From: Schmidtea nova
Taxonomy: Eukaryota
DNA: 64,000 nucleotides
Direction of reading: 5' to 3'
Assembly: GCA_044892505.1 (NCBI GenBank)
Contig: CM097883.1
Span: forward strand, 440,572,001 to 440,636,000
The translations under genes and the position numbers were made by a program. The notes beneath the pieces are model-generated. The model made no database searches and was not told the origin of the DNA. It saw only the letters and a program-made list of their open reading frames with translations. Positions 1-63,182 of the stretch are shown here, one piece after another; the first letter of the stretch is position 1; every line of letters begins with the position of its first letter.

Positions 1-560
1 ATAAGATAAAAGTTGATTGCAGAAAGGCGTTTGAATCAGAAATGATAAGAGAATTCACAAAGATGCTTGATATTTAATTATGTTTTTCGAGTCCATAACA
101 TCACCAAACAAACGGTCAGATAGAAAGACAATTCAGGACAATACGGGAGCTGATAAATGCTACTCTACAGGATAGAAGGAAGACGGACTGGGCAGAGATA
201 TTACCAGAAGTCGAATTCACATTAAATGCAAACAAACAAAAAACGACAGGGAAAAGCCCGGCAGAGATAGTTTTTGGAAAAAAGATTAGCAGGGAAAAAT
301 GGTACGAGTCCAAAGAAATACCGATAAAGGAAGAACTAGAAGAACAAACAAGGAGAAAATTTAATTTAGGAGAAGAAGTGTTAGTAAAATTAGAAACACG
401 CAACAAAAGCCAGGACAGATATGAAGGTCCATACAAAGTGATCGAGAAAGTGCATGACAGACGATACATCTTAAGAAATGAAAATGGTAAAATGGTCGAA
501 AGAAATGTGGAAAAACTTAAAAATTTCTTGAGGAAGTTGGAAGATTTGAGAAATTTTTAA
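1..560 (+). mobile_element. Decayed Ty3/Gypsy LTR retrotransposon, integrase C-terminal half
   Basis: Frame 3 reads KIKVDCRKAFES..REF..*LCFSSP*HHQTNGQIERQFRTI..DWAEILPEVEFTLN..TTGKSPAEIVFG..F.LGEEVLVK..RYEGPYKV. This is an integrase core with a GPY/F motif and two in-frame stops; a purine-rich tract lies at ~530-545. Confidence 0.85.
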
Positions 561-20300: not shown

Positions 20301-23300
20301 TAAAAGTTGAAATCTATATTCTAAAAGTTTACATAGCGGCCATATCCTCCCATGGAAGAATTACGTTCCACTTTAACGCAAAATCACATTACTAATAGGA
20401 TAAAGAAAAGGAGCCATAAAAACTGTTCCTACACAAACGAAAATACAGGGAACCTTAGAAAACTTTAAAATACGCTTCCTTCAAAGAACTTACCTTGAAG
20501 AATTTATAACAAAATACTATCTTAACAAACACTACCACAATATACGCAACAAAAAGAAACGACAGAAACACATTAAAAATAATAACCAAAAGATTTATGA
20601 TTTCCTTTGAAAATTAGAAGCATTTTCAACAAAATACATTTGCATATAGGCATCCGTCCTACTTTTATGACATATGCACCTTTCAAATTACAACTTCGAA
20701 ATCCCCCATTATCAAACATCTTTTTTAATGTTTTTTGCGGTTCTACGACCAGCTGCTTTTGCTTTTCCAAGAACATAGTATATAAACTTACGAGTCTTAA
20801 ATATGAGGAAAAACACAAAACTTTTCGCAACCGTCTTTATGAAGACACTAAAAATAAAATCAGCAAATATTAAGAACACTAAGAAAGTACATAAAATGAT
20901 CCCATCTAAAGATGAAATAAGAAGCCAACTTTTACACAACGGATTTAAAAATTCATAACACAGATTAGCTTCCGAAACTTCTTTTATCAAAAATCACTAA
21001 TCGTCCATTAACACTCAATTCATACAAGATAATTATGTTTAAAGTTTAAAATCAAATTAAATTAAAATTTATCCAATAAAATAATTTTAAAATATAAAAT
21101 AAATAATTAAATTTACTGTATAAGATTAAGTTAATATAACGATTGAAATACACACTGGATAAAAGACAAAAAATTAATAAAAATTATTGAATTGAAAAGT
21201 TGAAATATTTTATTGTGTAACCATTTCAAGAGGCTTCCCAAACTCTGACAATACCAGCAAAGTTGCCATCAAGGCTGAAGTTTTTAATAATTTTGTCTCC
21301 TGTATGAAACCATGACTGATATTCTTTTGCTGATTATCACTGTACTACTAAAATAGAAAAATGACGTTCAATAACATGTTTAGACTTGCTAGCGGTTTTA
21401 CAAAAATGATGTTACTAAATTTGTATGAACTAGGCAGCAAGTTTTCTTATTTATGGTAATTTCAAAAATTTTTATTTTAAACAACGAAACATTAATTCCT
21501 CTAAATTAGTGATACACAACCTGTTTTCAGTAAAGGGTTAATTTAAAAAAATTACTCAACATTTTAATTATTTAGAAATTTTAATTATATTTTCAGTCAT
21601 AATATAAATTATTTATTATTATTATCAATAATTCTCATAATGACTATAGATCAAAATTTTTTTTTATAAACAATAACACAATATTTCGGCACAGCCTTTA
21701 TCAAGTGTGTATAAATACACACTTGATAAAGGCTGTGCCGAAATATTGTGTTATTGTTTATAAAAAAAAAATTTTGATCTATAGTCATCATTATGAGAAT
21801 TATTGATAATAATAATAATAATAATAATAATTGATAATAATTGATAAAGGCTGTACCGAAATATTGTGTACTTAAAAACCAAATAATTTTGATCTATAGT
21901 CATTATGAGAATTATTGATAATAATAATAATATTATTATCAATAATTCTCATAATGACTATAGATCAAAATTTTTTTTTTATAAACAATAACACAATATT
22001 TCGGCACAACCTTTATCAAGTGTGATAAAGGCTGTGCCGAAATATTGTGTTATTGTTTATAAAAAAAAATTTTGATCTATATTCATTATGAGAATTATTG
22101 ATAATAATAATAAAAAAAGATCAAAGGTGAAAAAAGATAATTATGTTATTAATAATAATATATATTTTAATAATAATATATATTTCACTAGTCATAATCG
22201 TTTGGTAACTTTCCCGCCAAACATAAATTAACCATGTTAGCTTCCATAACAAATATAGCAATAACTGAAATGTCGACACAAATATCTCATGCAAGCATTC
22301 GTATCCTTGAATCGAAGTAGACTTAAATATTTTATATTTCTGCACTAAACACGTTGAATATGTTATCAATTATTTGAACAGTTGAAAATAAAAGTAGACT
22401 TAATAAGTTGACTTAAATATTTTATATTTCTGCACTAAACACGTTGAATATGTTATCAATTATTTGAACAGTTGAAAATAAAAGTTCCATTTTAATTAAA
22501 GTTGCTTTTTGGTTTCCAATAAGTCATAAATTTAAATCTATATTAATTGTTATGTTCTAAATTATTAAAACAAATCCAACTATTTAATAATTTATACATA
22601 TATTTCACATATATTTTAAATTATTAAATGACTATTGATTACTTTTCTATAAAAGTTCAATTTATAAAATCGTAGCTTTTAAAAGGTATTCAAATCATAA
22701 AAAAATAAAGTCAAATAAATAAACACGAAAGAAACATTTCTCTCATTTGTATTGTCAATATAAATATATTTTCAATTCTATTAGCGTGTTTCTAAAATTT
22801 TCGTTGACGTACCAAAAAATTCTAATGGATCTCAGAGATTAAAAACATTTTTCTTTATTATTTTTTTTCAAATTTGTCAACAAATCAACTGGACTAATTG
22901 ATATATTTTAACTGCTAACAATTAATTTTAGTATAAAATATTAATTCTTTTTCATTAGTTACAATATATTCTACTATTGCTATTATTGTTAATAGTTAAA
23001 AAACAAACGAAATCCAAATATATATTCTGCGAAATATATTTCTAGAACTTCCATCTCATCATCAGGTGCTATTCAATCAACCAATCCAATATAAATCAAA
23101 TAAATCGATTTTCAAACGAAATAATCATTTTTTTAAAAATTTAAATTATATATTTTATAAAATAACCAAAACATTTAAAATTAATAAATTAATTTTTAAT
23201 TTAAATAAATTAGTCCTAAAAATCATATTCTTTTTTTAATATATTTTTTAAGAATATTTTATAAATATTTTCCATATTTATAAACAACACTATGATTGAA

Positions 23301-26300
23301 GAGTGCGTGTGTTTACTTCATTTTTTGCGGTTTAAGTAAATTAACTGATGTGATTGTTGACGATTCTTATATTTTTCTTTTGATATTTATTCTATGCTCG
23401 TTTAATTTTTCAAATGTCATGGGCGAAATGCCACATACTTTGGAGCAGACTATTACCGTATTTTCTGTACTTGAGTGTTAGAGAATTTTCAATTGATGAT
23501 TATGGACTTTGTCTTCAATCATACTGTTGTTTATAAATATTGGAATATTTATGAAATATTCTTAAAAAATATTTTAAAAAAAGAATATGATTTTTAAGAC
23601 TAATTTAAAATTAAAAAATAATTTATAGTTTTAAATGTTATGGTTATTTTATAAAATTTATAATTTACATTTTTAAAATAAATATGATTAATTCGTTTGA
23701 AAATCGATTTATTTAATTTATATTGGAATGGTTGATTGAATAAAACCTGACGATGAGAATGAGTTTCTCGAAATATATTTCGCAGATTAAAAATATTTTG
23801 ATTAGCGATTGTTTTTAATTATTTCAGGGCCATGTTTGTTGTGTTATGTATTATTAATAGTATTAACATTTTTATTATTTCTATGATAATTGATTTTATT
23901 TTCACTGATACTTATTTACATGATAAAATTATGTCTAATTTGTTCTATAGAAGCCTAAAGGTCGTTAAAACATTTTTCAAAGTCGAAATATGAATGATTA
24001 TTTCAGTGAAATCTACTAAAAATTTTGTTTATATATCCGATAAAAATACACAATGTTCAATTCTGAACTTTTATTTTTATTTCTTTAGAAGGTACTAATC
24101 TAGCACAATGAGATAAATAAATAATTACAAAAAAGACGTATCCATGACAAGTAGGTACTTCCACATATATATTGCATGGTTTTCTGGAGTAGATATATTA
24201 ATAAACAATGAAAAACTGAGAACTCAGGCATTCAATATTCATCAAGTAGTAATTATAAGGAGTTACACAATAGAGCATACGTGTCAGGGCAATAAAATAT
24301 ATCGTAATAAGAACACTAGTTCGTTACCCGCTGCCTGAATCCGGATAATTATATGTTCACAATCACACTATCAGAGGAACAGTTGACACATTACTTATCA
24401 TATTTCCAAAACTTGTTGAAAAAGGATGATGTTCAATTTGTTCCATTGTATTATTACAGTGAAATAAACTGGAAATATCATATGTAAAAATAACACAAAA
24501 TTTAAATTATTTACGCAATTTGAAATAAAACATTTGAAATGTTGAAAATAAATTGAGTTAATTTAACGTATTCATTAATTATATCAAGGTCAAATTTAAT
24601 AACTTTTTTGATTAATTTATATTTAAATGGTATAGTATTTACCGATTAATATATGACAGATTTTTAAATATAATTTTACTATAATATTATGTACAATACT
24701 ATTTATTAAAAATTATAATTAAAAATCAAAATATTTATAATATATTTATTTCGTAACCTTGTTTTAATTAACTGTGCTACTTAAAAACAGTTTTGTTTGT
24801 TTTTACAAATTTGTTTGTCAAAATATAATAACATTCTTTATAATTCAATTTTATGAATTCCAAAAATTTTAAATTTTGCAATTTATAACTATAATTCTAA
24901 ATGATTTGGAAAATACAATTATCGGAACTAGCAGTAGTAATTATTTTTTACACATGCTTGTCATACAGATGTATTACAAGCTTTTCCTCTTTCCTTCTTC
25001 CTCAATGGTTATCCCACTTAATAATGTTAAGAATCGACCTGGGAGAATTAGTTTATTATTATTACGCTTAATTTATTCATCAATTGCCGTTTAAAATAAA
25101 GAAAACAATTAATAATATAGAAGAATTATTATATTATTAAAATAAATTCCTTGAAATTTTGATTTAAATTTTACTTTTATATAATTTATGAATGATCAAG
25201 CTCACTACAAAATCCAGTTAAATTTTTTTTAATAAGCTTTTAGAATGGTTTTCGGAACTTTATTTAATAAAGTTTCCCCCTATCCATTTGCAGATGTTAA
25301 TTGATACAATACCAAAATGAATTAAATATGTCATATAATACACAGGCTTTTTTATTCTACTTTAAATGTTGATGTACTTTCTATAACTATAATTATAATT
25401 ATTATTATAATTATTATTATTTAGTATTAATTATATTATTATCATTATTATAAGGAATAATAAAATTAATTAATTAAATTAACCTATTACACAATAATAA
25501 TTCCAAATCGTAGTTTCAAAAATAAAGTTATTTATGATGTTTGATTGTGTGTTTGAATGTATGCGTGTTTGAATGTATGCGTGTTTGCAGGTAAGCCAAT
25601 GAAGAGCTAGACAAGGGTGTCTATACGTTTTGATCGGGAGACCAAAAAGGAACACCAAAAATTGTGCGGCCAATTTTTTTGCTTGGTTTTTAATTATTTG
25701 ATTGAAATTTTGTTTACAGGCTTANNNNNNNNNNNNNNNNNNNNNNNNNNNNNNNNNNNNNNNNNNNNNNNNNNNNNNNNNNNNNNNNNNNNNNNNNNNN
25801 NNNNNNNNNNNNNNNNNNNNNNNNNNNNNNNNNNNNNNNNNNNNNNNNNNNNNNNNNNNNNNNNNNNNNNNNNNNNNNNNNNNNNNNNNNNNNNNNNNNN
25901 NNNNNNNNNNNNNNNNNNNNNNNNNNNNNNNNNNNNNNNNNNNNNNNNNNNNNNNNNNNNNNNNNNNNNNNNNNNNNNNNNNNNNNNNNNNNNNNNNNNN
26001 NNNNNNNNNNNNNNNNNNNNNNNNNNNNNNNNNNNNTCCTTTGAATATATAATGCAGTTTTTAATTATAGAAGTAAACTATTCAAGTTTTAAATCTTATA
26101 TCAAATTTTAGGTTTTTACATTATCTTCTATTATTGCTTTAAGTTTTAAATTTTTGCATTGTAATAAATAAAAATAGTTTTACATTTTTATATTTAACTG
26201 AAGTTTACCATGTATATTTTTTATTGGAAAATTGGAAAAAAAATAATTTCACTTCTATTCTTCTTTCAATGCTCTTCTTGCTTGGCCAGATATTTTTGAT

Positions 26301-29300
26301 TTGCATAAATATAGGGTTCTAAAAAGAAAAAAAATTTAAAAAGAAAATTTGAAACATTTTTGAGTATAAACAAAACCAAGAAATTAAATCAGAATAATAA
26401 TAAATATTCTAATTAATTTTAAGTTTTCGGTCAGAATATTAAAATACAAATTATTAATATTTTTAACAATTTTGATTAATTTAATTTAACTTATTGAAAA
26501 GATAACGACTTATTTAGGCCAAGAAAAAGTCTCGCGGATTATAGTTTGCACATTCTTGTTATAAGTACGTGTCGGATATTTATCCTCCGAATTTATTTTG
26601 GTGNNNNNNNNNNNNNNNNNNNNNNNNNNNNNNNNNNNNNNNNNNNNNNNNNNNNNNNNNNNNNNNNNNNNNNNNNNNNNNNNNNNNNNNNNNNNNNNNN
26701 NNNNNNNNNNNNNNNNNNNNNNNNNNNNNNNNNNNNNNNNNNNNNNNNNNNNNNNNNNNNNNNNNNNNNNNNNNNNNNNNNNNNNNNNNNNNNNNNNNNN
26801 NNNNNNNNNNNNNNNNNNNNNNNNNNNNNNNNNNNNNNNNNNNNNNNNNNNNNNNNNNNNNNNNNNNNNNNNNNNNNNNNNNNNNNNNNNNNNNNNNNNN
26901 NNNNNNNNNTTAAAATAATGAGTTTCCTAAGTACAAATCATCTCTTGTGGGTGTAAAATATTTAATAAATCAAATTTATTTATGTCAATAAACTATTTAG
27001 AGAAATTGTCGCCAGCTGCAGGAAGTAAAATATTAATTATTATGTTTTCTTTTAAGTTAATAAGCTGTCTCAATTTGATAACTTTCTTATTGTATTGATG
27101 GGAACAATTGCAAAAATTGGGATTAAAATGAATTACTCATTCAGATAATTGCCGGAATCATATAATTTTCTCTAGAAATTTTTAATTACATTTTATTCTT
27201 AAACATTTTCTATTGACTTTATCTTATTAATTAGATTCAAATTCGACAATATTATCAACAATTCAAACCTTTCCACAAAACAGAACGTTTGCAAAATTAA
27301 AATCAAAACCAGAAAATTATTTCCAAATGTCTATGGTTGATGTTTATTTGAATTCTTTAAAAAATTCGTCAGACAAAAGCAGTGCATTCCTTAGCCCGGA
27401 AGGTTTCTCGTCGTTGATCATCAGTTTGGGATTGAGGAAAAGGAATAATATCACAAAAATGTTTAACAATATTTCTGTACAGGTTGGCTCAAATATTCAG
27501 TTATAATTCATAAAATTTAAGTTTACCTTAATGTGTGTTTATTACATATCAGAAAATTTCAAAAATCTGATTTATTAATTCAAATTAAATGCCTAATAAC
27601 GACAAAAAGCCTATTTAATACTGACTTTTTAAATTAGGCAGTGCCGAAAATTTGTGTTTAATTTGAAAAAATCGAAAGCCATTTTTATTATTTATCCTGA
27701 TTAATATTGCTTTTTTAACATGTTACAAAATATATATATATATTTCGGACCAAAATGTTTTTTGGCTTATTCTGAATGTTTAATTACTTATTATAATATC
27801 TTTATTTATTATTATTATTATTTATTCTTATTATTCTTATGACTTTTTATTTTTATTTATTATCATTATTATTTTTTATTAATATTTTTTTTTATTTTAT
27901 TATTGTTATTTATTTTATAACTTTTATTTTTTATGAAATTTTATTTATTATTATTATTCTTATTTATTCTTATTCTTATTACTTTTTATTTTTAGTTATC
28001 ATCATTATTATTTTTTATTACTATCATAATTTATTATTATTTTATTATTGTTATTTATTTATTTTACAATTTTTATTTTTTATGAAATTTTATTTATTAT
28101 TATTATTATTTATTCTTATTCTTATTCTTACTCTTTATTTTTATTTATTATCATTATTATTTTTTATTACTATTTTTATTTTTTATTATTTTATTATTGT
28201 TATTTATTTATTTTACAATTTTTATTTTTTATGAAATTTTATTTATTATTATTATTATTTATTCTTATTCTTATTNNNNNNNNNNNNNNNNNNNNNNNNN
28301 NNNNNNNNNNNNNNNNNNNNNNNNNNNNNNNNNNNNNNNNNNNNNNNNNNNNNNNNNNNNNNNNNNNNNNNNNNNNNNNNNNNNNNNNNNNNNNNNNNNN
28401 NNNNNNNNNNNNATTTCTTCATCTTTTATATTTTTGCGATTTCGTGTACATAGTGTCTCATTTGATAGTATGACGTTTAGATAGTGTTTATATTTTATTT
28501 ATTAATGTTTTTTGTAATCGTGATAATTTATTTATAATTATATTTTAGATGAATTTTAATACAAAAAAAAGTATAAGAGACTAAAAGACGATAAAAAATG
28601 TTATATACATTTATTGAACTATATAGTAATTTTAATAAGTAAATTTAATAAAAAACACAATTTATTTAACCTCCGTTCATATATTTTGACAAAATCCCTG
28701 TCATCTTCAGACAATAGACACCCAAGAAAGAAAATTATGTTTTATTCATTCTATTCAAACAATTTATAAAAAATATTATTAAATAAATTTTAAATATTAT
28801 TTTAATAAAAGTATATTATTCATATATATTCAAAATCAAGCTCAAAATAGTTTTTTAAAAGAATTTACAAAATTTGAATTATTAACCATTTTTTAAATTT
28901 CTAAAATTAAATTTTTCAATTTTAACAAAACCAATCAATATAATTAATACAACATCACGCCCATGCTAACAATCAAACTATTAAAAATCACTCAAAATAC
29001 ATTTTCACCACGATCTGTACATTAATCTTTGGATTCAGAGCTCTTATCAACAATGCTTCACATATAATGCATTCATAATGATTATTAAGATTTTAAAATC
29101 AGACATGTAAATCTTTCTCTTGCATTCTTTATTGTCATCACTTATATTAGACACTCCCTTCGGTCGACAATGTTAAATAACTCGAATTCAGAGTTGACGA
29201 GCAATCTTTTCAATGTATGTGACATTACATATAAATGGATAAACGATATTTGAACACAATTTAACCGGAGTTACATACTATTCACTATACATGAATCGAA

Positions 29301-49000: not shown

Positions 49001-52000
49001 CTACAGCGTAGTAAAAATTCTACGCTACACCGGTTTTATTATTTTGGATAGGAAAAATATGTTGGTTTTATTTCCATCTATTATTGTCAGTATCATTGCT
49101 CATTCAGCTGAAGATTGATTTGCAAAGTTTAAAGGCCAAACATGAAATTTTGGTACACCTCATAAAATCTTTCCAAGGACCCCCCAAATTTAAAGACCTT
49201 CCTTATATCCCCTAAAATATATTTGACTTCTCCCAACCTTTTTTAAATTTCTTGATTTTTCGCTGATTTCCTTAATGGATTTACAAGATTTGTAGATTGT
49301 TCGATTCGGAATTACTTATCCTACAAGTTGACATAAAAAAAGTTGACATCTTTAAAACATTTTTATTTTTATTTTTATTTTCACCTTCAACTTTTTCTAT
49401 TCGAAATAATCAAGTCGACAATTTAAGCATGTTAGATGTTTTAGAAAGTATTTTATTAAAATTCAATAAGTAGTAAATTTATTAATAAAAACCTGAATTG
49501 TGTGAATTAATTAGATTAATGCCTGTCAACAGCGGAAAAGATGAGGTAATGGTGAAAACTGTACCAAATAATAAATTGTTTTGATTGTTTATCATGACAG
49601 ATGGAAGAATTATAGATACGGAATGTTAGAAAGTCAGATGGAAGTTACAAATAGACGANNNNNNNNNNNNNNNNNNNNNNNNNNNNNNNNNNNNNNNNNN
49701 NNNNNNNNNNNNNNNNNNNNNNNNNNNNNNNNNNNNNNNNNNNNNNNNNNNNNNNNNNNNNNNNNNNNNNNNNNNNNNNNNNNNNNNNNNNNNNNNNNNN
49801 NNNNNNNNNAAAACTAACTAAATCAACTAGGTTCACTAAGTCAAAAAACATAGTTTTTAGTAAATCGATATTTAAGAAGTTTGTGTATCTGAAGGTAGTA
49901 TTCGGTTTTTTGACAATGTAACTATTATTAAATTCAGTTGTATTTTTGCCTTTGGAAAATTATATAATAAGTGTACATGCTAAATTTATCGAATAATAGT
50001 TTAAATATAGCGATTATTACGAAAAGCTTTTCCTTTTTACTCTTTTTCCTTTTTTTCTTTTCATTATTCCTTTTACTATTTTACTTTTTCCTTCTTTTGT
50101 ATTTTGTATTTGATTATTTGAATATACAAGTTAAATTTATTGACTAATAGTTATATTAAATTTTTATTTAATTTTTTTTGAATATTTTTGTAACATTTTG
50201 ATGCTAACTTTTAGAGTACATGTTTCAGAATCAAACTAAATCCAGCAAGCGAAACAGTGGAAAATTAAAAAAAATTACAGGGGTCAATTTATTTAGGGAG
50301 GTTTACCAAAAATTTCACTCACTCACTCACTCACACACACACACATATATATATATAAAAAGGATGTATTAGAAACTTCTAATAAATTTTTTTTTGAGAA
50401 GGATTGAGATTTCTTTGCAATAATTTAAAAATTTATGATGGTACTTTGTATAAAATGGATCAGCCAAGATCTTTGATGCAAGGCCTCTAGGTTCCAGCTA
50501 CTTAACTTTACTCTTTGCAATTGATTTTTGCGTCCGTGTAGACTTAAATGTTTTCATGGAGCAAATAAAGTTCTAATTTTCAGCTTTTGTCTTAATTTAC
50601 TGATCATATTGTTATAGGAATTTAAGTTTATTATGCACTCAATGAAATCTGTCTTCAAAATATTTTTGAAATTCTAGACCGTCCTCAACATTACACATTC
50701 ATGATTTGAAATCCCTCAATGGAATTCTTTCAAGACATCTTTAAAATTTATACAAATATATAACATAAATTCTAANNNNNNNNNNNNNNNNNNNNNNNNN
50801 NNNNNNNNNNNNNNNNNNNNNNNNNNNNNNNNNNNNNNNNNNNNNNNNNNNNNNNNNNNNNNNNNNNNNNNNNNNNNNNNNNNNNNNNNNNNNNNNNNNN
50901 NNNNNNNCCTTTGATCTTTTTTTATTATTATTATCAATAATTCTCATAATGACTATAGATCAAATTTTTTTTATAAACAATAACACAATATTTCGGCACA
51001 GCCTTTATCAAGTGTGTATTTCAATATATATATATATATATATATACGTTTATATGTATTATTTGTCTCATTATTTTTGTAATACAAAGAATAAAATAGT
51101 TTTTCTTTTCGTTTAATTATACAAATTTAGTGGAAACGTTTTGGGGTTCCGCAACAAAATAAGTTTGAGATCGCTGCATTAAATTAATTATTCCTTAATT
51201 ATTTTCTTTCTCTAGGTAAAATATCAAATTTCTTAAGTTTTGTTAATCGTCTATTTGTAACTTCCATCTGACTTTCTAACATTCCGTATCTATAATTCTT
51301 CCATCTGTCATGATAAACAATCAAAACAACAATTTATTATTTGGTACAGTTTTCACCATTACCTCATCTTTTCCGCTGTTGACAGGCATTAATCTAATTA
51401 ATTCACACAATTCAGGTTTTTATTAATAAATTTACTACTTATTGAATTTTAATAAGTCAATTTTTGAGTTTTTGTTGAGGGCTTCATTTATCCAGCACAA
51501 TAGCTATTGAGTATGACTTTTTACCGAGAATTTACCGTGCAGATGAAGTATGGCTGTTCTTATGATACGGTAGATTGTATTGGTAACTGTAAATCACGAT
51601 TTTCTTTTCATTATTATTTATTGTACCAATTTGGAATATTTCCCATTGAAATTTATTCTCCATAAACTAGGTGAAAACTGTTAGTACAAAACATTCTGAC
51701 CACATAGAACGATTAGAAATTGGAGCCGGTGGAGCGACAGTTAAATCGAGTTTAGCCCATCCGTTTAAAAACAAACCTCACGGTCATCATCATGGGCATA
51801 GTCATGATTTGAGTAGTGTTAAAGCGATCGCATACACAGTCATTGCCGGAGACGGACTTCATAATTTCTGTGACGGAATAGCAATCGGAGCGGCATTTGC
51901 AAATGACATTGGAGGTGGCTTATCAACTGCTATAGCGGTCCTCTGTCATGAATTACCCCACGAACTTGGTAATAATTTAGTCCTCCTATCGGTCAAATGT

Positions 52001-52207: not shown

Positions 52208-53824
52208 GTGAGTGAGTTATTTCAATTTGCGTTTAGTGTCAAAATTTGATAAATCAAAATTAAAAGTTTACAAACAAAAATAAAGAATCCTGAATCCATA
52301 TAATTGTCCTATTGTATCTTATTAATTGTAAATTAAAATTATTTTTTGCTAGTAGCGATATTTTGTTTCAATAATATTTTTATATTCTTTAACTCTTTTT
52401 GTCCACAAAACCCTAAAATTCCAAATTTTCGTAACCAAAACCCCAACAATTAGAAAAGTGAAAAATCAAATTTAGATTTATTGAACAAATTTCGGTGACT
52501 TTATGGAATTGGGAAATTGCACTTTGATTTAAATGAATTTAGAACGATCTTTTAAAAAATTCAGCACCGGAAGTACGTACGTTACAATTTATTTGGCGAA
52601 ACTTTTCCTAATTCAAAATTGACATTTTAAAACCAATCTGGAAGAGATATCCGTTCGCAACACTTAAAAACTGTCAATATCTAGTGTCAGAGGTCATAAT
52701 CCCATGTAACCCTTGATATTTCTCATGGAATCCTATTTGGGAATCACTGATTTAATCCACTAATGCCCACTGTTGTCATAAAATTGAGCAATATCAAGGA
52801 CCCATAAAGTCTGGCTGATTAGTTATTCCAAAAAAATAAATTGCAAAAAATGAATCTTAATTATTTAATTTTTGAGATTTAAAGTATTTTGAATTATTTA
52901 TCATAATAAATAAAATTTTACCATATTTATAGAGTCTTCTGTAAAATAAAAATATATTTGTTATATGTGCATTATAACAAGAATTGCATATTATTATTCA
53001 TATTATTTCATATTCCTTTTGTCGTCTTATGACGGCATGGTCTTCTTAGGCTCCTATGGACTAGAAAGCTTGGCAAAATATCAATTATTTTATTTTCAAC
53101 TCTTTCTATTAACTTCCAATTTCTGTTTGTTTTCTTGTCAAACTTTGGATCGATTTTTAACCCACTTCCCGATATCCAATCGATCTGAAAATTTGCGAGC
53201 AGACTCGTGGTGGCCCACGAATTAATCCATTGAAAAATTAAAAAATTTTGAAAAATTTTGAAACAATGTGATTTTTTAATTTACGGTTGCCAAGAAACTA
53301 CCAAACAATGAAACAACAATAAAATTTACCGAGAACATGAGAAAAAGAAAGAGTTACATTAAAAATTTGTTTTTATGGTTTCCTTTTTTTTACTTCTATT
53401 TATTTGGTCAGTATTATTTATAAAAAACGGTCAGTATCTTATTAAATAAATTATCAGTATATAACAATATTTTGGTTAGTGTAAATAATTACCACACGGT
53501 TCTTAAATTTTACAATGCAATTTTATAATTTTTTATTATTTTTTTATTATAATTTTTTTATCGGAATCAACTAACTTGTCGCGTTATTTTTTATTAGAGG
53601 AAAATTCTAAAAAAAATTTCATTTAAAAAAGTTTCATTTAAGAACTAAAGGTAAAAAACAAAACGGGGATGAAAATATAAAAATTATAAGCGTATTTCGT
53701 GTTTCTTTTCGTGATTCTTTAAAATTTATATTTTTATTTATTACATAGAAATACTGATATATTTTTATTACTCACTATTTATTTAAAATATAAATACAAA
53801 TTGTTTTGTTGTTTGCAGAGTTTA

Positions 53825-54775
53825 TTAAAAATAAAAATAAATTAACAACGGTAAGTCTTCTCCACAATGTTTATTAAATGAAATATTTCGATCTTAAAAA
53901 GATCCTGATCACTCCAATACTTCTTGCTGGATATTTTCTTTCTCCTGAATTCTGATTCAATGTTGATTAATAAAATAAATTAAGATTTATTCTTGAGATA
54001 TATTAAATAAAATTAAAATTTCTCAAAAATCATTTGATAATTATAATAATTCTTTCTCTTAATTAATTCTCAAGAATAAATCTCACTTTGAAACTTTAAT
54101 TTTTTTATTAAAATTTTATCCGTAGCTATTTTGAAGACGGCGTTAATCTGGCTCAGATTGAAAGTATAAATACAAATTGTTTTTTCATTAGCAAAGTTTA
54201 TTAAAATATAATAATAAGGTAACAGTGTTATGAAAGAATTATTCTAATTTTGTATGGGAACTGGTTTTTTAATTTTTCAAATTGAGCATTTTATTAAAAA
54301 GAAAACGCTCTAATTATTAAAAAAATTATAAATAAACACTTTTAAAACTCTAATTTTGTATAGGGAAGAGGTTTTTTAATTTTTTTAAATGTTTCAAATT
54401 TTTAAAAAAGAACATTTTATTAATCGGAAGACTTTGACTCTGATTTTTGAAAAGTTTTTTAAAATAAAGAATGCTATAATTACTGAAAATTAATAAATAA
54501 AAAAACTTTTAAAACCTTTAAAGAAACTTTTAAATTATCAAATGATTTTTGAGAAATTTTAATTTTATTTAATTTATCTCAAGAATAAATCCTAATTTGT
54601 TTTAATAATCAACATTAAATAAGAATTCAGAAGAAAATATCCAGAAAGAAGTGGGAAGTCAATTGGAAAGAAATACTTATTGGAGTGATCAGGATCTTTT
54701 TAAGATCGAAATATTTTTTTAATAAACATTGTGGAGAAAGGCTTAACAATGTTACCTTATTATTATATTTATTTA
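53825..54775. repeat. Imperfect palindrome with ~220-bp arms, each carrying a hammerhead-like motif pointing outward (putative PLE family D pseudo-LTR pair)
   Basis: Arms 53825-54043 and 54533-54775 are reverse complements. No coding remnant was seen, so PLE origin is inferred. Confidence 0.75.
54678..54724 (+). ncRNA. Hammerhead-like motif with swapped G3-C8 core pair; mirror copy at 53872-53919 (-)
   Basis: tattgga-GTGATCA-g-gatctt/ttt/aagatc-GAAA-tatttt-tttaata. It has a 6-bp stem II and a 7-bp stem I with two G-U pairs; core and stem II are identical in both arms. Confidence 0.5.
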
Positions 54776-55660: not shown

Positions 55661-56245
55661 CAAATAAATGGCTATTGGCTTTATGCAAGATTACGGACAA
55701 ATTCTGTTTTTTATTTATTTTTATTTCCTTGCATTATCCATGATAACCTTTTACTAGTATTCTAGTCATTTCTAAAATTATATTTTTATCAATGTATTAT
55801 TTTTATCTGATCAAGTAAACTATTATTTTTCTTATAATAAGCAAAATATGAAACCAGGAAATTTCTCATGATTAGGCTCTTGTTTTGAATTCAATTAGTA
55901 ATGTGAGATCATTTGCATATCCTCAATCAGGTCATTTTCATGATAACTAAGGAAATTTNNNNNNNNNNNNNNNNNNNNNNNNNNNNNNNNNNNNNNNNNN
56001 NNNNNNNNNNNNNNNNNNNNNNNNNNNNNNNNNNNNNNNNNNNNNNNNNNNNNNNNNNNNNNNNNNNNNNNNNNNNNNNNNNNNNNNNNNNNNNNNNNNN
56101 NNNNNNNNNNNNNNNNNNNNNNNNNNNNNNNNNNNNNNNNNNNNNNNNNNNNNNNNNNNNNNNNNNNNNNNNNNNNNNNNNNNNNNNNNNNNNNNNNNNN
56201 NNNNNNNNNTCATAATGACTATAGATCAAAATTTTTTTTATAAAC

Positions 56246-56287
56246 AATAACACAATATTTCGGCACAGCCTTTATCAAGTGTGTATT
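56246..56287 (-). ncRNA. Hammerhead-like motif in the 3' pseudo-LTR (U3-A8)
   Basis: Exact reverse complement of 61583-61624. Confidence 0.7.
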
Positions 56288-56376
56288 TCTATCGTTATAT
56301 TTACTTAATCCTAAATAGTAGCCTTAATTATTTTTTTAATATTTTATAATGATTTTATTGGATGAAAAAATTTATT

Positions 56377-58974
56377 TTAATTTTTTTGTGCGAATTGAAT
56401 GTTGATGGACGGTTTGTATTTTTTTATGAAAAAATTCTCGGAAGCTAATCTTTGTAATGAATTTTTGAATCCCTCTTGTAGGATCTGGCATTTTGTTTCT
56501 TCTATAGATGGAGTTGTTTTATGTACTTTTTCCCAGTGTTCGTAATAATTACTGGTTTTGATTTTAGTATGTTCATTAAGTCGGGTGCGAAAAGTTCTAT
56601 GTGTTTCTCCTATGTAAGTAGCGTCACATTTTTGACAAGAAAGTTTATATACTATATTTTTGGAAAAGCAAAAGCATCGGGTTGTGGAACGACAAAGACA
56701 TTTATGTTTGGAGATGTTGGAAATTGGTGGCTTTCGGAGTTGTGATTTTAACGGTGCGGAGGTTATGAACGTTGGACGGATGTGGATAGGCAAATCTGTT
56801 TGATTAAAAATGTTGGTGATTTTGTTGGCTGTAGTGTCATTTAGGAAAGGTAATCTTAGATATGTTGTGTGTTTGTTATTGTTATTGTGTTTCTGGCGTT
56901 TTCTATTGTTGCGTTTATTGTGGTATGGTTCGTTGAGAAAGTGTTTCTTTACAAAGTCTTCAGGGTATCCATTTTGGAGGAATCGTATTTTGAAGTTTTC
57001 TAATGTTTCTTGTATTTTGTTTGCGTCTGAACAGTTTCTTATGGCTCTTTTTCTTTCTCCTATTAGTAATGCGATTTTGCGTTGAAGTGGAACGTGGCTT
57101 TTCCATGGGAGGATATGACCGCTATGTAAACCTTTAGAATATAGCTCGGTGTTTGCATTTAGTGTATCTTGGCCTTTTGTGAAACTTACCATGGTATCTA
57201 AAAACGGTATTTTACCTTCTGTGTTCGGTGTTTCAAAAGTGAATTGTATGTTGGTGTTAGTAGAATTTGCGTGTGATAGGATTTGATTGAGAGGGATTGT
57301 GGAGACTATGAAGATGTCGTCGATGTATCGTTTCCAGAAAAGTATTTTTTCCCCAAAAAAAGATATGATCTTAGATTCTATAAAGTTCATGTAGAAGATG
57401 GCTAAGATGGGAGAAAGGTTATTACCCATGGCTAATCCATGAATTTGTTTGAATGGTTTTTCTTTTATTATGACAGTATCTGAATTTATTGCTAATTTTA
57501 GAAGTTCTATAAAGTCTTGTTTAGTTAAGTCTGCGAGGTCTGTATTGGTTTTATGAGTTTCAAAGAAAGAAGCTGCGATATCGAAAATGTTATTCTCTCC
57601 GTGAAGAGGAATAGATCCGTAAAGATTGGAAACGTCAAGAGATCCCCAGAAGTACTGTTGTCCTGAGTTTAACGGAAGAGACGTATTTGTAATTTCGGAG
57701 ACGAATTCAGTTGTGTTTTTAAGATGAGAAGGAACCAAAGGCAAAAGTGTTTTTAGAATTTCTGAAAGAACTTTAGAAAGTGTTGTGGAAGGAGTGTCAA
57801 CTGCAGATACAAGAGGTCTGCCTTTTAAAGGACTTTTGTGATCTTTAGGTAACATAGTCATATTACTAGGTAAAGGCTCACTGCAGTTGCATTTTAAAAG
57901 TAAATCTTTGATTTGAAGGTTAATTTGTTTATTTGCAAGTGTTGAAAGTTTCTTATTGTATAAAATCTGAGTCGATGCAGGTAAGATTATTTTGTTTATC
58001 GGTTCATAGTTCGAGAGATGTTCTTCAAATAGAGTATTGTATTGTTCTGTGTCAAGAGCAATTAGTCGATTTGTTTTATCTGATGGAAGAATTGTGAAGT
58101 CTTTGGAATTCTTAATTTTCTTTATGTTTGAAGTGAAAGAATTTTGTGTTGAGCAATGTTTTTCAAGAAAGATAATTTGTTCTCTGACTAAAGTTTTGAC
58201 TTTAGTTTCTAAACAGCTGATTTTTTCTTCAAGTTCAGTCGAAAAGACAGGCATATTTGGATATGTTCTACGATTTGGATCCAGAAGATGATTGTGCTTT
58301 TCAGCTAAACTTGAAGATTTGGTGGATGAAATTGGTTTTAGATGGTATCCTATTTGTCTTCTTAGGCTTATAAGAGAGGCGTTAGTGATGATTTCGGCTT
58401 TTTCTAAATCTTTCTGGTTAGGTGGAGGAACAAAAGATGGTCCTAGAGCGAGGATGTTTTCTTGTGTTTTTGAAAAAATGTGATTAGATTTGTTTGTAAA
58501 TGGAAGAATTGAATTTGAGTGTGAGTTAGTGTCTTTAGTGTTGTTTGAATTTGTTGAAAGTAGCTTTTCTAATTTTTTATGCTTGCGAATGTCGAGATTT
58601 TTGGAGAAATTCTGGCAACAAGTATTATCTTCACAAGTAAGAGGAGCACAAGGAAAACTAGTAAATTCGTTTAGCTTTTTGTAACAAGCTGAAATGCTAA
58701 GCTTAAGCCATTCTTTTTCCTGTTTTTCCTTAAGCTTCAATGCTTGTAAAGATGGATAGGTTGATTCCAGTTTGTTGGTAACAGTCAGGCCCACGGGAAT
58801 GATGTTTCTTCTTTTGCATTCTTTTAAAAAATGTAAGTGTGATTTGATTTTGATGATTTTGAGACTATAAAATAACGATAGATCTACTCGGTGATGGGCG
58901 TCCGCCAATATACTATCATAATTATCTTTTTTCACCTTTGATCTTTTTTTATTATTATTATCAATAATTCTCAT
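56377..58974 (-). CDS. PLE reverse transcriptase + GIY-YIG endonuclease, intact 865 aa
   Basis: LALGPSF, ILPSDKTN, LPKDHK..GRPLVS, SLDVSNLYGSIP, GLAMGNNLSPILA, WKRYIDDIF, IPFLD, NGYP, CLC..CFC linker, NIVYKLSCQKCDATYIGETHR..RLNEH..H..E..I..KPSIN. Confidence 0.95.
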   Translation of the reverse strand: MRIIDNNNKKRSKVKKDNYDSILADAHHRVDLSLFYSLKIIKIKSHLHFLKECKRRNIIPVGLTVTNKLESTYPSLQALKLKEKQEKEWLKLSISACYKKLNEFTSFPCAPLTCEDNTCCQNFSKNLDIRKHKKLEKLLSTNSNNTKDTNSHSNSILPFTNKSNHIFSKTQENILALGPSFVPPPNQKDLEKAEIITNASLISLRRQIGYHLKPISSTKSSSLAEKHNHLLDPNRRTYPNMPVFSTELEEKISCLETKVKTLVREQIIFLEKHCSTQNSFTSNIKKIKNSKDFTILPSDKTNRLIALDTEQYNTLFEEHLSNYEPINKIILPASTQILYNKKLSTLANKQINLQIKDLLLKCNCSEPLPSNMTMLPKDHKSPLKGRPLVSAVDTPSTTLSKVLSEILKTLLPLVPSHLKNTTEFVSEITNTSLPLNSGQQYFWGSLDVSNLYGSIPLHGENNIFDIAASFFETHKTNTDLADLTKQDFIELLKLAINSDTVIIKEKPFKQIHGLAMGNNLSPILAIFYMNFIESKIISFFGEKILFWKRYIDDIFIVSTIPLNQILSHANSTNTNIQFTFETPNTEGKIPFLDTMVSFTKGQDTLNANTELYSKGLHSGHILPWKSHVPLQRKIALLIGERKRAIRNCSDANKIQETLENFKIRFLQNGYPEDFVKKHFLNEPYHNKRNNRKRQKHNNNNKHTTYLRLPFLNDTTANKITNIFNQTDLPIHIRPTFITSAPLKSQLRKPPISNISKHKCLCRSTTRCFCFSKNIVYKLSCQKCDATYIGETHRTFRTRLNEHTKIKTSNYYEHWEKVHKTTPSIEETKCQILQEGFKNSLQRLASENFFIKKYKPSINIQFAQKN

Positions 58975-59006
58975 AATGACTATAGATCAAAATTTTTTTT
59001 ATAAAC

Positions 59007-59048
59007 AATAACACAATATTTCGGCACAGCCTTTATCAAGTGTGTATT
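59007..59048 (-). ncRNA. Hammerhead-like motif in the 5' pseudo-LTR (U3-A8)
   Basis: Exact reverse complement of 61583-61624; the partner copy is at 56246-56287. Confidence 0.7.
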
Positions 59049-59129
59049 TCTATCGTTATATTTACTTAATCCTAAATAGTAGCCTTAATTATTTTTTTAA
59101 TATTTTATTTTTTTAATATTTTACAAGCA

Positions 59130-61493
59130 TTGAAGCTTAAGGAAAAACAGGAAAAAGAATGGCTTAAGCTTAGCATTTCAGCTTGTTACAAAAAGCTAAA
59201 CGAATTTACTAGTTTTCCTTGTGCTCCTCTTACTTGTGAAGATAATACTTGTTGCCAGAATTTCTCCAAAAATCTCGACATTCGCAAGCATAAAAAATTA
59301 GAAAAGCTACTTTCAACAAATTCAAACAACACTAAAGACACTAACTCACACTCAAATTCAATTCTTCCATTTACAAACAAATCTAATCACATTTTTTCAA
59401 AAACACAAGAAAACATCCTCGCTCTAGGACCATCTTTTGTTCCTCCACCTAACCAGAAAGATTTAGAAAAAGCCGAAATCATCACTAACGCCTCTCTTAT
59501 AAGCCTAAGAAGACAAATAGGATACCATCTAAAACCAATTTCATCCACCAAATCTTCAAGTTTAGCTGAAAAGCACAATCATCTTCTGGATCCAAATCGT
59601 AGAACATATCCAAATATGCCTGTCTTTTCGACTGAACTTGAAGAAAAAATCAGCTGTTTAGAAACTAAAGTCAAAACTTTAGTCAGAGAACAAATTATCT
59701 TTCTTGAAAAACATTGCTCAACACAAAATTCTTTCACTTCAAACATAAAGAAAATTAAGAATTCCAAAGACTTCACAATTCTTCCATCAGATAAAACAAA
59801 TCGACTAATTGCTCTTGACACAGAACAATACAATACTCTATTTGAAGAACATCTCTCGAACTATGAACCGATAAACAAAATAATCTTACCTGCATCGACT
59901 CAGATTTTATACAATAAGAAACTTTCAACACTTGCAAATAAACAAATTAACCTTCAAATCAAAGATTTACTTTTAAAATGCAACTGCAGTGAGCCTTTAC
60001 CTAGTAATATGACTATGTTACCTAAAGATCACAAAAGTCCTTTAAAAGGCAGACCTCTTGTATCTGCAGTTGACACTCCTTCCACAACACTTTCTAAAGT
60101 TCTTTCAGAAATTCTAAAAACACTTTTGCCTTTGGTTCCTTCTCATCTTAAAAACACAACTGAATTCGTCTCCGAAATTACAAATACGTCTCTTCCGTTA
60201 AACTCAGGACAACAGTACTTCTGGGGATCTCTTGACGTTTCCAATCTTTACGGATCTATTCCTCTTCACGGAGAGAATAACATTTTCGATATCGCAGCTT
60301 CTTTCTTTGAAACTCATAAAACCAATACAGACCTCGCAGACTTAACTAAACAAGACTTTATAGAACTTCTAAAATTAGCAATAAATTCAGATACTGTCAT
60401 AATAAAAGAAAAACCATTCAAACAAATTCATGGATTAGCCATGGGTAATAACCTTTCTCCCATCTTAGCCATCTTCTACATGAACTTTATAGAATCTAAG
60501 ATCATATCTTTTTTTGGGGAAAAAATACTTTTCTGGAAACGATACATCGACGACATCTTCATAGTCTCCACAATCCCTCTCAATCAAATCCTATCACACG
60601 CAAATTCTACTAACACCAACATACAATTCACTTTTGAAACACCGAACACAGAAGGTAAAATACCGTTTTTAGATACCATGGTAAGTTTCACAAAAGGCCA
60701 AGATACACTAAATGCAAACACCGAGCTATATTCTAAAGGTTTACATAGCGGTCATATCCTCCCATGGAAAAGCCACGTTCCACTTCAACGCAAAATCGCA
60801 TTACTAATAGGAGAAAGAAAAAGAGCCATAAGAAACTGTTCAGACGCAAACAAAATACAAGAAACATTAGAAAACTTCAAAATACGATTCCTCCAAAATG
60901 GATACCCTGAAGACTTTGTAAAGAAACACTTTCTCAACGAACCATACCACAATAAACGCAACAATAGAAAACGCCAGAAACACAATAACAATAACAAACA
61001 CACAACATATCTAAGATTACCTTTCCTAAATGACACTACAGCCAACAAAATCACCAACATTTTTAATCAAACAGATTTGCCTATCCACATCCGTCCAACG
61101 TTCATAACCTCCGCACCGTTAAAATCACAACTCCGAAAGCCACCAATTTCCAACATCTCCAAACATAAATGTCTTTGTCGTTCCACAACCCGATGCTTTT
61201 GCTTTTCCAAAAATATAGTATATAAACTTTCTTGTCAAAAATGTGACGCTACTTACATAGGAGAAACACATAGAACTTTTCGCACCCGACTTAATGAACA
61301 TACTAAAATCAAAACCAGTAATTATTACGAACACTGGGAAAAAGTACATAAAACAACTCCATCTATAGAAGAAACAAAATGCCAGATCCTACAAGAGGGA
61401 TTCAAAAATTCATTACAAAGATTAGCTTCCGAGAATTTTTTCATAAAAAAATACAAACCGTCCATCAACATTCAATTCGCACAAAAAAATTAA
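59130..61493 (+). CDS. 5'-truncated second copy of the PLE ORF (787 codons, no ATG at the junction)
   Basis: The translation is identical to residues ~79-865 of the minus-strand ORF. The listed start is a TTG just inside the inversion junction. Confidence 0.85.
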   Translation: MKLKEKQEKEWLKLSISACYKKLNEFTSFPCAPLTCEDNTCCQNFSKNLDIRKHKKLEKLLSTNSNNTKDTNSHSNSILPFTNKSNHIFSKTQENILALGPSFVPPPNQKDLEKAEIITNASLISLRRQIGYHLKPISSTKSSSLAEKHNHLLDPNRRTYPNMPVFSTELEEKISCLETKVKTLVREQIIFLEKHCSTQNSFTSNIKKIKNSKDFTILPSDKTNRLIALDTEQYNTLFEEHLSNYEPINKIILPASTQILYNKKLSTLANKQINLQIKDLLLKCNCSEPLPSNMTMLPKDHKSPLKGRPLVSAVDTPSTTLSKVLSEILKTLLPLVPSHLKNTTEFVSEITNTSLPLNSGQQYFWGSLDVSNLYGSIPLHGENNIFDIAASFFETHKTNTDLADLTKQDFIELLKLAINSDTVIIKEKPFKQIHGLAMGNNLSPILAIFYMNFIESKIISFFGEKILFWKRYIDDIFIVSTIPLNQILSHANSTNTNIQFTFETPNTEGKIPFLDTMVSFTKGQDTLNANTELYSKGLHSGHILPWKSHVPLQRKIALLIGERKRAIRNCSDANKIQETLENFKIRFLQNGYPEDFVKKHFLNEPYHNKRNNRKRQKHNNNNKHTTYLRLPFLNDTTANKITNIFNQTDLPIHIRPTFITSAPLKSQLRKPPISNISKHKCLCRSTTRCFCFSKNIVYKLSCQKCDATYIGETHRTFRTRLNEHTKIKTSNYYEHWEKVHKTTPSIEETKCQILQEGFKNSLQRLASENFFIKKYKPSINIQFAQKN

Positions 61494-61582
61494 AATAAAT
61501 TTTTTCATCCAATAAAATCATTATAAAATATTAAAAAAATAATTAAGGCTACTATTTAGGATTAAGTAAATATAACGATAGA

Positions 61583-61624
61583 AATACACACTTGATAAAG
61601 GCTGTGCCGAAATATTGTGTTATT
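61583..61624 (+). ncRNA. Minimal type I hammerhead-ribozyme-like motif, U3-A8 variant
   Basis: AAUA(C)ACAC-UUGAUAA-A-GGC/UGU/GCC-GAAA-UA-U-U-GUGUUAUU. It has an 8-bp stem I with a bulge, a 3-bp stem II and a palindromic AUAU stem III, and sits in a PLE pseudo-LTR where such ribozymes are known to occur. Confidence 0.7.
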
Positions 61625-61716
61625 GTTTATAAAAAAAATTTTGATCTATAGTCATTATGAGAATTATTGATAATAATAATAAAAAAAGATCAAAGGTGAA
61701 AAAAGATAATTATGAT

Positions 61717-62047: not shown

Positions 62048-63182
62048 CGTGGTGCGGTCAAAAAGTTTCCGGCCTACCCCAGAAAAAAGTAAAAGCAAGA
62101 AACCACAACTATATTTTTATCAACACCAATACCATTACTTCTCGAACCAATTACCTCCGGCATCGACACACTTCTGCCAATGACCAGGGAGGGCTTCGAA
62201 TGCCCCATGGTAAAATGAGGGTGGAAGCTGGACAAAAATTCGATTTACAGCCTCCTCTAAATCGCCTGCATCCATGAAATACTGTCCCCGCTGTTGCTTC
62301 TTCAATTCCGTAAATAGGCAGTAATCTGAGGGAGCCAAATCATGGCTGTATGGAGGGTGGCTAATGATCTCGAAGCCACAGTCATTGAGTTTTGCTTGGG
62401 CAATGTGGCTGGTGTGAACTGGCACATTGTCATGTTGAAACCAGTGAGGGAGACCATATGGTTTTCGGTACTTTCTACGAGCTTGCGGCTTTCTCCATTC
62501 CATAGACTCCCGCTTTGATTCAGCCTGATGTAGGGGCAACGGTGTCTCGTCAACAGTGAGGATGTTTTGGGTAAATCTTTCTCCATACTTGCGGTAAATG
62601 GCGATGTTCATGAGACACGCATTCTTTCGGTTATTGCACATCTTAGTTGTCAAAAAGCGAGGCACAAAGCGAGACACTACCTTGTTGAAGTTAAGGTCAT
62701 TCAATAATTGCACTACGGTGCCGTGTGATATTTGTAAGGATTCTTCCAGCTGCCTGGTAGTTATACGGCGATCTTCCAGTACCATTTTCTCCAATTTTTC
62801 CTTCATTTCTCGAAGTCGTTGGTCGACCCTCTCGTTCCTCATCTGACACACTTTGCCGACCCCGTTTGAATTCAGCAATCCCAAACTTGATGGTAGACTG
62901 AGAGGGACACTTTTCGCCATAGGCTCAATTCAGATTTGCCATGATTTCCTGGTTGGTTTGGCCGAGAAGAACACAAAAGCGAATAGCACTGCGATACTCA
63001 ATTTTTTTCCAGCGAATGCACTTGCAACGACATTTCCATCTGCAACAGATAAAGTAAATGGATTAGGTCAATAAGATTTTCAACATGAAATTGTCAATAA
63101 ATTTCCAATAAAATAAACCTATTTCCATTAAAAAATCAATTTGTTAAGTAGGGTAGGCCGGAAACTTTTTGACCGCACCACG
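62048..63182 (-). mobile_element. mariner (DD34D) transposon, defective
   Basis: Perfect 32-bp TIRs cgtggtgcggtcaaaaagtttccggcctaccc and a TA TSD. The transposase has RFVPRFLT, TVDET and HDN-34 aa-D (HPPYSHDLAPSDYCLF). The N-terminus is frameshifted and the segment between the first two Asp residues is deleted. Confidence 0.95.

Follow-up and report, generated by a model that had tools for sequence, protein, structure and literature searches.

Does a hammerhead ribozyme with a flipped core pair exist in nature, and what has spread it? The question is raised by an inverted repeat in a 64,000-nucleotide stretch of the Schmidtea nova genome (hereafter the window), in which each arm carries a hammerhead-like motif with G at position 3 and C at position 8. 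Standard hammerhead numbering and the NUH rule are used throughout. The sequence GTGATCAGGATCTT has two matches in the window, at 53899-53912 (-) and 54685-54698 (+), against a chance expectation of 0.29 +/- 0.50 in shuffles when two mismatches are tolerated. On both arms the motif reads G3 U4 G5 A6 U7 C8 A9, followed by an extra G, the stem II sequence GAUCUU/uuu/AAGAUC, GAAA, and UAUU, and the two motifs face outward. The initial annotation had described such a core, identical on both outward arms, and this is confirmed at 53912 (-) and 54685 (+). Over 31 nt of the core the arms are 100% alike, compared with about 90% in the flanking blocks (117 nt at 90%, 48 nt at 92%); taken alone, this identity is marginal evidence (0.9^31, about 0.04), and it is the genome-wide data that decide.

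Rather than a perfect palindrome or a terminal inverted repeat, the element consists of two copies of a 572-bp tandem unit, each truncated differently and joined head to head. The inverted arms of the palindromic repeat described earlier are real, but the palindrome is not perfect, and the left boundary moves from 53825 to about 53781. The left arm (53781..54230, -) is a 5′-truncated copy covering more than one turn of the unit. Numbered from the predicted cut site, it starts at unit position +29, passes through an internal deletion and the hammerhead, and ends near +100, the second of two preferred 3′ ends. The 26 nt directly upstream of the motif are missing from this arm. Its minimal hammerhead (53882..53912, -) runs from G3 at 53912 to U17 at 53882 and comprises GUGAUCA, the extra G, a 6-bp stem II, GAAA, an AUAU palindrome, and an AUU triplet, with a 2-bp stem I (GA/UC) and a predicted cut at 53882/53881. 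The segment 54055..54230 (-) holds the tail and start of the preceding unit, including a faint trace of a former reading frame without an intact ORF, which indicates a template that was longer than one unit, or circular. A type III reading through an upstream AAAUAUC was rejected because it requires a 25-nt deletion that is present in the left arm only.

The two 5′-truncated arms meet at a head-to-head junction at 54228..54231 (no strand). The right arm (54228..54775, +) is about 83% identical to the family majority, contains a short internal duplication, and terminates at about +55-60, which is the first of the preferred 3′ ends. Its minimal hammerhead (54685..54715, +) extends from G3 at 54685 to U17 at 54715, with a predicted cut at 54715/54716 and a weak stem I (A-U, G-U, G-U). 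Both copies in the window are old, and as templates they are probably inactive.

The unit to which both arms belong is a non-coding tandem repeat, the majority version of which has stops in all six frames. What lies 3′ of one motif continues into the sequence 5′ of the following one, the repeat length being about 570 bp. Pattern counts over the whole genome gave 3,818 exact G3-C8 cores and 0 for a reversed-pattern control, together with 132 cores with another base at position 3 and 67 with G3 and another base at position 8; G3-C8 thus makes up 3,818 of 4,017 pattern matches. A DNA search with the repeat returned 2,076 first-look candidates, and five of 40 evenly spaced 10-kb stretches contained it. 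Thousands of dispersed copies lie over all three large contigs, many of them 95-98% identical to the young unit, and the sequence upstream of them is unit sequence, never an ORF. An internally deleted, 357-bp version of the unit occurs as three tandem copies at L002 (C2:152.00 Mb).

The core has changed less than its surroundings. Among 96 copies chosen by their upstream flank only, which are not independent of one another, the core differs from the majority at 62 of 1,209 cells (5.1%; 13 positions). The flanks differ at 272 of 3,409 cells upstream (8.0%) and 652 of 5,571 downstream (11.7%), figures that take in subfamily differences and truncated ends (Fisher test of core against flanks, p 8e-4 upstream and 4e-13 downstream); the difference also holds within the G/C and A/T classes. 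U4 G5 A6, A9, G12 A13 A14 A15.1, U16.1, and H17 are in order in 92-99% of the 96 copies each, and H17 is U in 87 of 90 flank-picked copies. Within the motif, subfamilies differ in loop II or in ways that preserve pairing, not in the core, and position 1.2 is C or U facing G in 80 of 88 copies. G3-C8 itself is kept in older and younger subfamilies, over lineages whose flanks are only 60-70% alike. We consider it very probable that the motif arose as a hammerhead under selection. The possibility that G3 was fixed by an ORF ending at the core UGA was rejected, as the upstream open frames span 5-44 codons (42 motif rows).

Covariation inside the G3-C8 family itself is slight. Single copies decay uncompensated: by hand count, 5 of 12 double changes found among the first 100 of the 132 listed matches with another base at position 3 restore a Watson–Crick pair, which is about the share expected by chance. 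C at 10.3 has a G partner in 4 of 27 copies (hand count); the test at this position used 26 copies, which are related to one another, and gave p of about 0.002. In a set chosen by patterns that fix several positions, covariation is weak, with 19 both-side cells versus 12.3 in shuffles (5/500), and the number of covarying pairs is no higher than in shuffles. One C3-G8 copy with main-family flanks, at L164, is interpreted as two changes that coincided by chance. A C3-G8 ancestor with an old-lineage flank was not found among 16 matches, in which 11 family members keep C8.

Other hammerhead families occur alongside this one. The window carries an 869-aa family A PLE ORF with RT and GIY-YIG (56377..58986, -), whose terminal repeats hold intact U3-A8 hammerheads at 59039 (-), 56278 (-), 61592 (+), and other places. 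This young PLE occupies 56210-61660, where it forms a 2,541-nt perfect inverted duplication with arms that are 100% complementary. An inverted pair of decayed C3-G8 hammerheads lies at 23020..23795 (no strand): in the copy with C3 at 23065 (-), stem I is missing and stem II starts with a G.A mismatch at its base, and the one with C3 at 23747 (+) also has no stem I. A GIY-YIG-like fragment precedes, by about 400 bp and in the same orientation, a further decayed C3-G8 hammerhead at 28710 (28670..28715, -), in which A replaces G12. Three types of 3-8 pair are thus present in the window, as had been noted, but its C3-G8 copies at 23.0, 23.7, and 28.7 kb are all decayed; intact relatives were identified at L006, L092, and L074, the last with a 2-bp stem I.

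When a descriptor was allowed any base at positions 3 and 8, it matched 30 motifs in evenly spaced sequence totalling 400 kb and 0 in five 400-kb shuffles. The pairs were 22 U-A, 6 C-G, and 2 G-C, with none unpaired, and no A3-U8 family was identified in the 400 kb or in 1.86 Mb of rescanned sequence. The proposal of natural 3-8 covariation across co-resident retroelement families is supported by these 30 Watson–Crick pairs out of 30, and a sister family described below adds true covariation. The palindrome of helix III is AUAU in the G3-C8 family, AAUU in family D, and either AUAU or AUAUAU in the remaining families. L107 (-), L150, L175, L178, L207, and L339 belong to yet another family, whose hammerhead is more canonical: it has a C3-G8 pair and lacks the extra nucleotide, with 4 bp in stem II, an ACUAGU palindrome, and 6-7 bp in stem I.

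The window also contains host exons of a NAT10-like RNA cytidine acetyltransferase at 5095-6372 and 9924-10595 (+; Pfam NAT10_TcmA_helicase, GNAT_acetyltr_2), a hAT transposase fragment at 12398-12895 (+), and a DDE (mariner-like) transposase fragment at 62135-62929 (-). An integrase-like frame at 99-560 (+) was recognised by eye, with no Pfam hit. Arms in inverted orientation at 49453-49658 and 51247-51455, alike at 100% over 128 nt and at 96% over 92 nt and separated by about 1.6-1.7 kb, are possibly the end pair of a DNA transposon.

The rescan of 1.86 Mb revealed a sister family, here called family D, with a U3-G8 pair (copies at L013 (-), L069:8783 (+), L118, L200, L210, L219 (-), L280, and L308; tail fragments in the window near 35835-35910 and 45090-45175). 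Its 95-nt tail aligns to the G3-C8 tail with z 7.1 (0/300 shuffles), compared with z of 1.8 or less for the tails of five other families; the upstream flanks of the two families show no significant similarity (z 1.5). L069 and L280 share 885 nt of continuous homology, and in both a same-strand GIY-YIG fragment precedes the family D motif by about 500-570 bp. The family D copies seen are broken and without RT within the loci. Hammerhead and tail of the G3-C8 lineage are thus shared with a GIY-YIG-bearing PLE family of the U3-G8/U3-A8 type, and on this sequence homology we consider the G3-C8 lineage to be PLE-linked.

Among 17 family D copies with an intact UGA, the 3-8 pairs are U-G in 9, U-A in 6, C-G in 1, and C.A in 1; the most diverged copies carry U-A and younger ones the U3-G8 wobble. 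In a joint alignment of 17 hand-chosen copies (6 G3-C8 and 11 family D), position 3-8 is GC in 6, UG in 5, UA in 4, CG in 1, and unpaired in 1, and 92.8% of cells pair. Both-side changes occur at 3-8, 10.4-11.4, 10.5-11.5, and the helix III palindrome (AUAU versus AAUU), giving 28 covarying cells versus 9.1 in shuffles (0/500). The two families form separate clades in the tree (100/98; midpoint root, no direction), so this covariation is essentially one deep split rather than many independent events. Concerted change in four features is nonetheless the pattern expected of a conserved hammerhead fold.

Stem II has 6 bp, is closed by G10.1-C11.1, and shows both-side changes relative to family D and in older copies. 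The AUAU palindrome of helix III and the AUU triplet lie in the register of family A (GAAA, UAU, H17, stem I). Stem I has 2 bp (GA/UC) in the expanded UGGA subfamily and 3 bp (UGA/UCA) in the expanded UUGA subfamily. In older G3-C8 copies, whose flanks are 60-70% like the young unit, stem I has 4-5 bp, often the 4 bp UUGA/UCAA, and follows the family A register. A second register (GAAA-U-A, with three weak pairs) is possible in the UGGA subfamily. The family has a cleavable NUH, in the form of AUU, and a stem I that is short. The literal C3 and G8 of the CUGANGA box, which is fixed in published descriptors (PMC8557442), are absent, and the family has GUGANCA instead. Given the covariation with family D, we take the motif to be an authentic minimal hammerhead of type I whose G3-C8 pair is natural.

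A different account of the locus would be a fortuitous resemblance to a hammerhead, or a DNA transposon (MITE) with terminal inverted repeats. The window element does resemble inverted arms around a spacer, and an Rfam search (gathering threshold and E 10) found no hammerhead in it. Rfam was equally blind to the family A control motif inside a PLE terminal repeat, however, so its silence on the G3-C8 motif is uninformative. An unrelated three-copy repeat at L131-L133, which holds short repeated hairpins, fits the loose G3-C8 pattern without stem I and with a broken stem II, and was set aside as a chance match. Against this account, both arms derive from the same tandem unit, circularly permuted and ending at variable points, tandem arrays and two PLE-type 3′ ends are present, the motif covaries with that of family D, and the shuffles yielded no descriptor match. 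It is already largely refuted and we consider it very improbable. The connection to PLEs rather than to the terminal repeats of a DNA transposon, a point raised at the outset, is sustained by the 3′ ends, the family D homology, and the arrays.

The capacity of the motif to cut can be judged from folding predictions and published mutants. The sense strand forms a better fold than its shuffles do (z -2.4 linear, -2.9 circular); the corresponding antisense values are -1.1 and -0.6. In the youngest subfamily, UCAUUUAA is predicted to pair with UUGAGUGA, forming an 8-bp helix over G3-A6, a structure 3.7 kcal/mol lower in energy than the active fold; the helix is lost in a natural unit with C3. The predicted chance that U4-A6 are unpaired is 0.07 in the youngest subfamily versus 0.81 and 0.87 in families A and C, and it is 0.05 in one C3-G8 family. 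The C3G/G8C double mutant is reported to restore cleavage partly in a PLE hammerhead that required protein (PMC11167929), and such rescue is also described for hammerheads generally (PMC8495972). C17 reportedly suits G3-C8 poorly (PMC3884650), and the U17 of this family avoids it. Published motifs include 2-bp stem I examples, and minimal PLE hammerheads are described as cleaving weakly even as dimers (PMC4209133); eight of nine frog retrozyme dimers showed no cleavage in vitro (bioRxiv 10.64898/2026.07.22.740005). Present-day cleavage by the G3-C8 hammerhead seems somewhat more probable than not, and it is predicted to be slow and to occur only in the dimer; tuning of its rate by the 3-8 pair, as the initial annotation proposed, is conjecture.

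Insertion ends point to the machinery that moves the repeat. The 3′ ends of 126 copies were placed, 50 of them at +55-70 and 36 at +88-104 (86/126 together). An ATT/TAA or TA run lies within 24 bases of 47 of these 86 preferred-end copies, compared with 3 of 20 copies that end elsewhere below +88. Family A PLE copies behave similarly, with 74 of 83 ending at +60-69 or +100-109. The family shows 5′ truncation, an inverted 5′ copy, an optional 30-40 bp tail, and microsatellite targets, the same four features that are listed as marks of PLE insertions (PMC8557442). For a lizard PLE, reverse transcription has been shown to begin at two adjacent sites, with both strands cut at ATT and both extended (PMC11167929). 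We hold PLE-driven RNA mobility of the repeat to be highly likely. The 5′ ends fall at +1 to +30 in 20 of 83 copies and at -29 to 0 in 14 of 63, with no edge at the predicted cut site; a pile-up just past that site, hinted at by 7 of 12 copies, disappeared as an edge in the larger set.

Arrays record how the copies were made. At C1:18.44-18.46 Mb, 19 (-) and 15 (+) motifs form a two-armed array in which 31 of 32 full units are identical and both sides end in microsatellite, at the two preferred sites. Unit differences amount to 0-6 letters within five multi-unit loci and to 8-32 among nine loci. Each insertion thus has its own unit version, common to both arms, as a circular template predicts. 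Identical units could also be explained by transcripts of homogeneous arrays or by later DNA amplification, and assembly polishing could mask differences between units. A circular RNA template is nevertheless the explanation to which we give moderate preference. An intact PLE of 850 aa with a C3-G8 hammerhead and a 3-bp stem I also forms two-armed tandem arrays, with 2.9-kb units of which 7 of 8 are identical (C2:112.61-112.64 Mb, L375-L377; C2:252.41 Mb; C3:107.39 Mb), which suggests rolling-circle copying of a whole autonomous element.

Amplification at the DNA level builds arrays too, as shown by the array at C2:231.7 Mb (231.69-231.71; L205, L206), where C3 faces C8 in 11 of 23 units among 24 motifs. 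Its higher-order variant pattern is what one would expect if the arrays were ordinary satellite DNA, derived from PLE terminal remnants by unequal crossing-over without RNA being involved now, and if the dispersed copies were old PLE ends; the same route has been proposed for vertebrate retrozymes (bioRxiv 10.64898/2026.07.22.740005). Such an origin does not account for thousands of dispersed copies that are often 95-98% like the young unit and show PLE-type 3′ ends, 5′ truncation, and inverted arms, nor for the unit sequence, in place of an ORF, upstream of them. We consider it improbable.

A closer competitor accepts a PLE-dependent repeat and regards the hammerhead of the expanded subfamilies as a relic, locked or dead, which worked in the older copies with a 4-bp stem I. 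Spread would then proceed through uncut multimeric transcripts or template jumping, and the motif would be kept by descent or as a protein-binding structure. The shortened stem I, the predicted competing helix, the missing edge of 5′ ends at the cut site, and the amplification of C3.C8 units in one array fit this. Insertion in vitro is not reduced by hammerhead mutants, so that activity appears dispensable there (PMC11167929), and PLEs without canonical hammerheads are described as proliferating well (PMC8557442). It accords less well with subfamily differences that spare the core and sit in loop II or keep pairs (as at position 1.2), with the survival of G3-C8 across lineages with such diverged flanks, and with the unit version particular to each insertion and common to both arms. 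A relic is a possibility we take seriously, at a clearly lower probability than a working ribozyme.

The reading we favour, with moderate confidence, is that the window pair consists of truncated copies of a non-autonomous retrozyme that is served by the reverse transcriptase and nuclease of a PLE and has a hammerhead predicted to be slow and dimer-dependent. Tandem copies would be transcribed, and two motifs would join through the AUAU palindrome to form helix III. The dimer may then cut after AUU, with the unit RNAs closing into circles. A PLE protein would bind the tail and nick ATT-rich DNA on both strands, and reverse transcription would begin about +60 or +95 from the cut site, as suggested by the two 3′ end sites and by the lizard PLE (PMC11167929). 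Both DNA ends would prime, so that the motifs point outward, and the two cDNAs would grow inward and meet head to head. Short runs might produce pairs like that of the window, and long runs round the circle two-armed arrays of identical units. We advance only tentatively the fuller scheme of a living retrozyme, in which the G3-C8 dimer cuts, the 8-bp helix (via G3) locks the core of the circle, and the PLE performs rolling-circle copying from both break ends. If this were true, searches with a fixed CUGANGA box would have hidden such families, perhaps including the ribozymes of "hammerhead-less" PLEs.

The partner PLE was sought directly. The initial annotation had suggested looking for copies attached to an RT/GIY-YIG ORF; no such copy, and no intact G3-C8 parent, was found in the best 150 of 6,658 candidates or beside the motifs in the loci examined. 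The search used a 66-aa frame from the unit start, which by eye only resembles PLE N-termini, and the longest open frame among these 150 was 244 codons and had a stop. Families A and C were rejected as parents, showing no specific DNA or protein similarity to the repeat, and in its AT-rich middle the unit is equally similar to each of the three PLE 3′ regions compared.

The hammerhead 3-8 pair was deduced from the crystal structure and then tested by laboratory swaps; in nature, C-G and U-A were known at these positions. Two transitions are enough to turn C3-G8 into U3-A8, with a U-G wobble, as seen in family D, in between, whereas G3-C8 requires two transversions with no paired intermediate. 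A G-C family of about 4,000 copies that still inserts in near-identical form would mean that selection keeps the geometry of the pair and not its identity, despite the two transversions. One genome with C3-G8, U3-A8, U3-G8, and G3-C8 families, two of them homologous, offers a natural series on whether minimal PLE hammerheads cut in vivo, and the two-armed arrays of identical units, found for both a PLE and a retrozyme, allow a direct test of the proposed circular-RNA route. Descriptors fixed on CUGANGA and Rfam share a blind spot for such motifs. In the searchable literature we found no natural G3-C8 hammerhead, only engineered versions, and some key hammerhead and PLE papers lie beyond that search. 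Very many small PLE-linked variants were reportedly described by Lunse et al. in 2017, the likeliest place for an earlier natural G3-C8 example.

The closest relatives of the motif are the minimal type I hammerheads of PLEs (PMC4209133), with which it shares an extra nucleotide between A9 and 10.1, G10.1-C11.1, a long stem II, a short stem I, a palindromic helix III, AU-rich flanks, and many solo copies. Opposite-strand pairs 100-700 bp apart and U3-A8 variant families are also described there; PMC4209133 and PMC3088659 together already report the extra nucleotide, the AU-rich palindromic helix III, the opposite-strand pairs, and U3-A8. Among the 56 representatives in Fig. S3 of PMC4209133, 53 are C3-G8, 2 U3-A8, and 1 U3-G8, with no G3-C8. 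The extra nucleotide is G here versus consensus H in those motifs, and no intact PLE was found here with the motif in its terminal repeat. Natural covariation at 3-8, as here, is also seen in the hammerheads of Perreault et al. (2011, PMC3088659), with U3-A8 as the only variant described.

Animal non-LTR retrozymes (PMC7229834; bioRxiv 10.64898/2026.07.22.740005) are likewise built of AT-rich tandem units that are non-coding and hold a single type I hammerhead each; they occur as monomers to multimers beside co-resident PLEs, and their unit is homologous to a PLE terminal repeat. Their units are reported at 150-450 bp versus 572 bp here, and their hammerheads are of the canonical type with loop–loop contacts, in contrast to the minimal PLE-type ribozyme with a flipped pair. 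Circular RNA is a feature of those retrozymes, whereas the likeness rests here on genomic DNA, and two-armed arrays of identical units are not described in the relevant passages of these papers. Engineered C3G/G8C hammerheads (PMC11167929; PMC8495972; PMC3884650) have the same G3-C8 pair and are partly active, but they are laboratory rescue mutants, unlike the natural family of about 4,000 copies identified in this genome.
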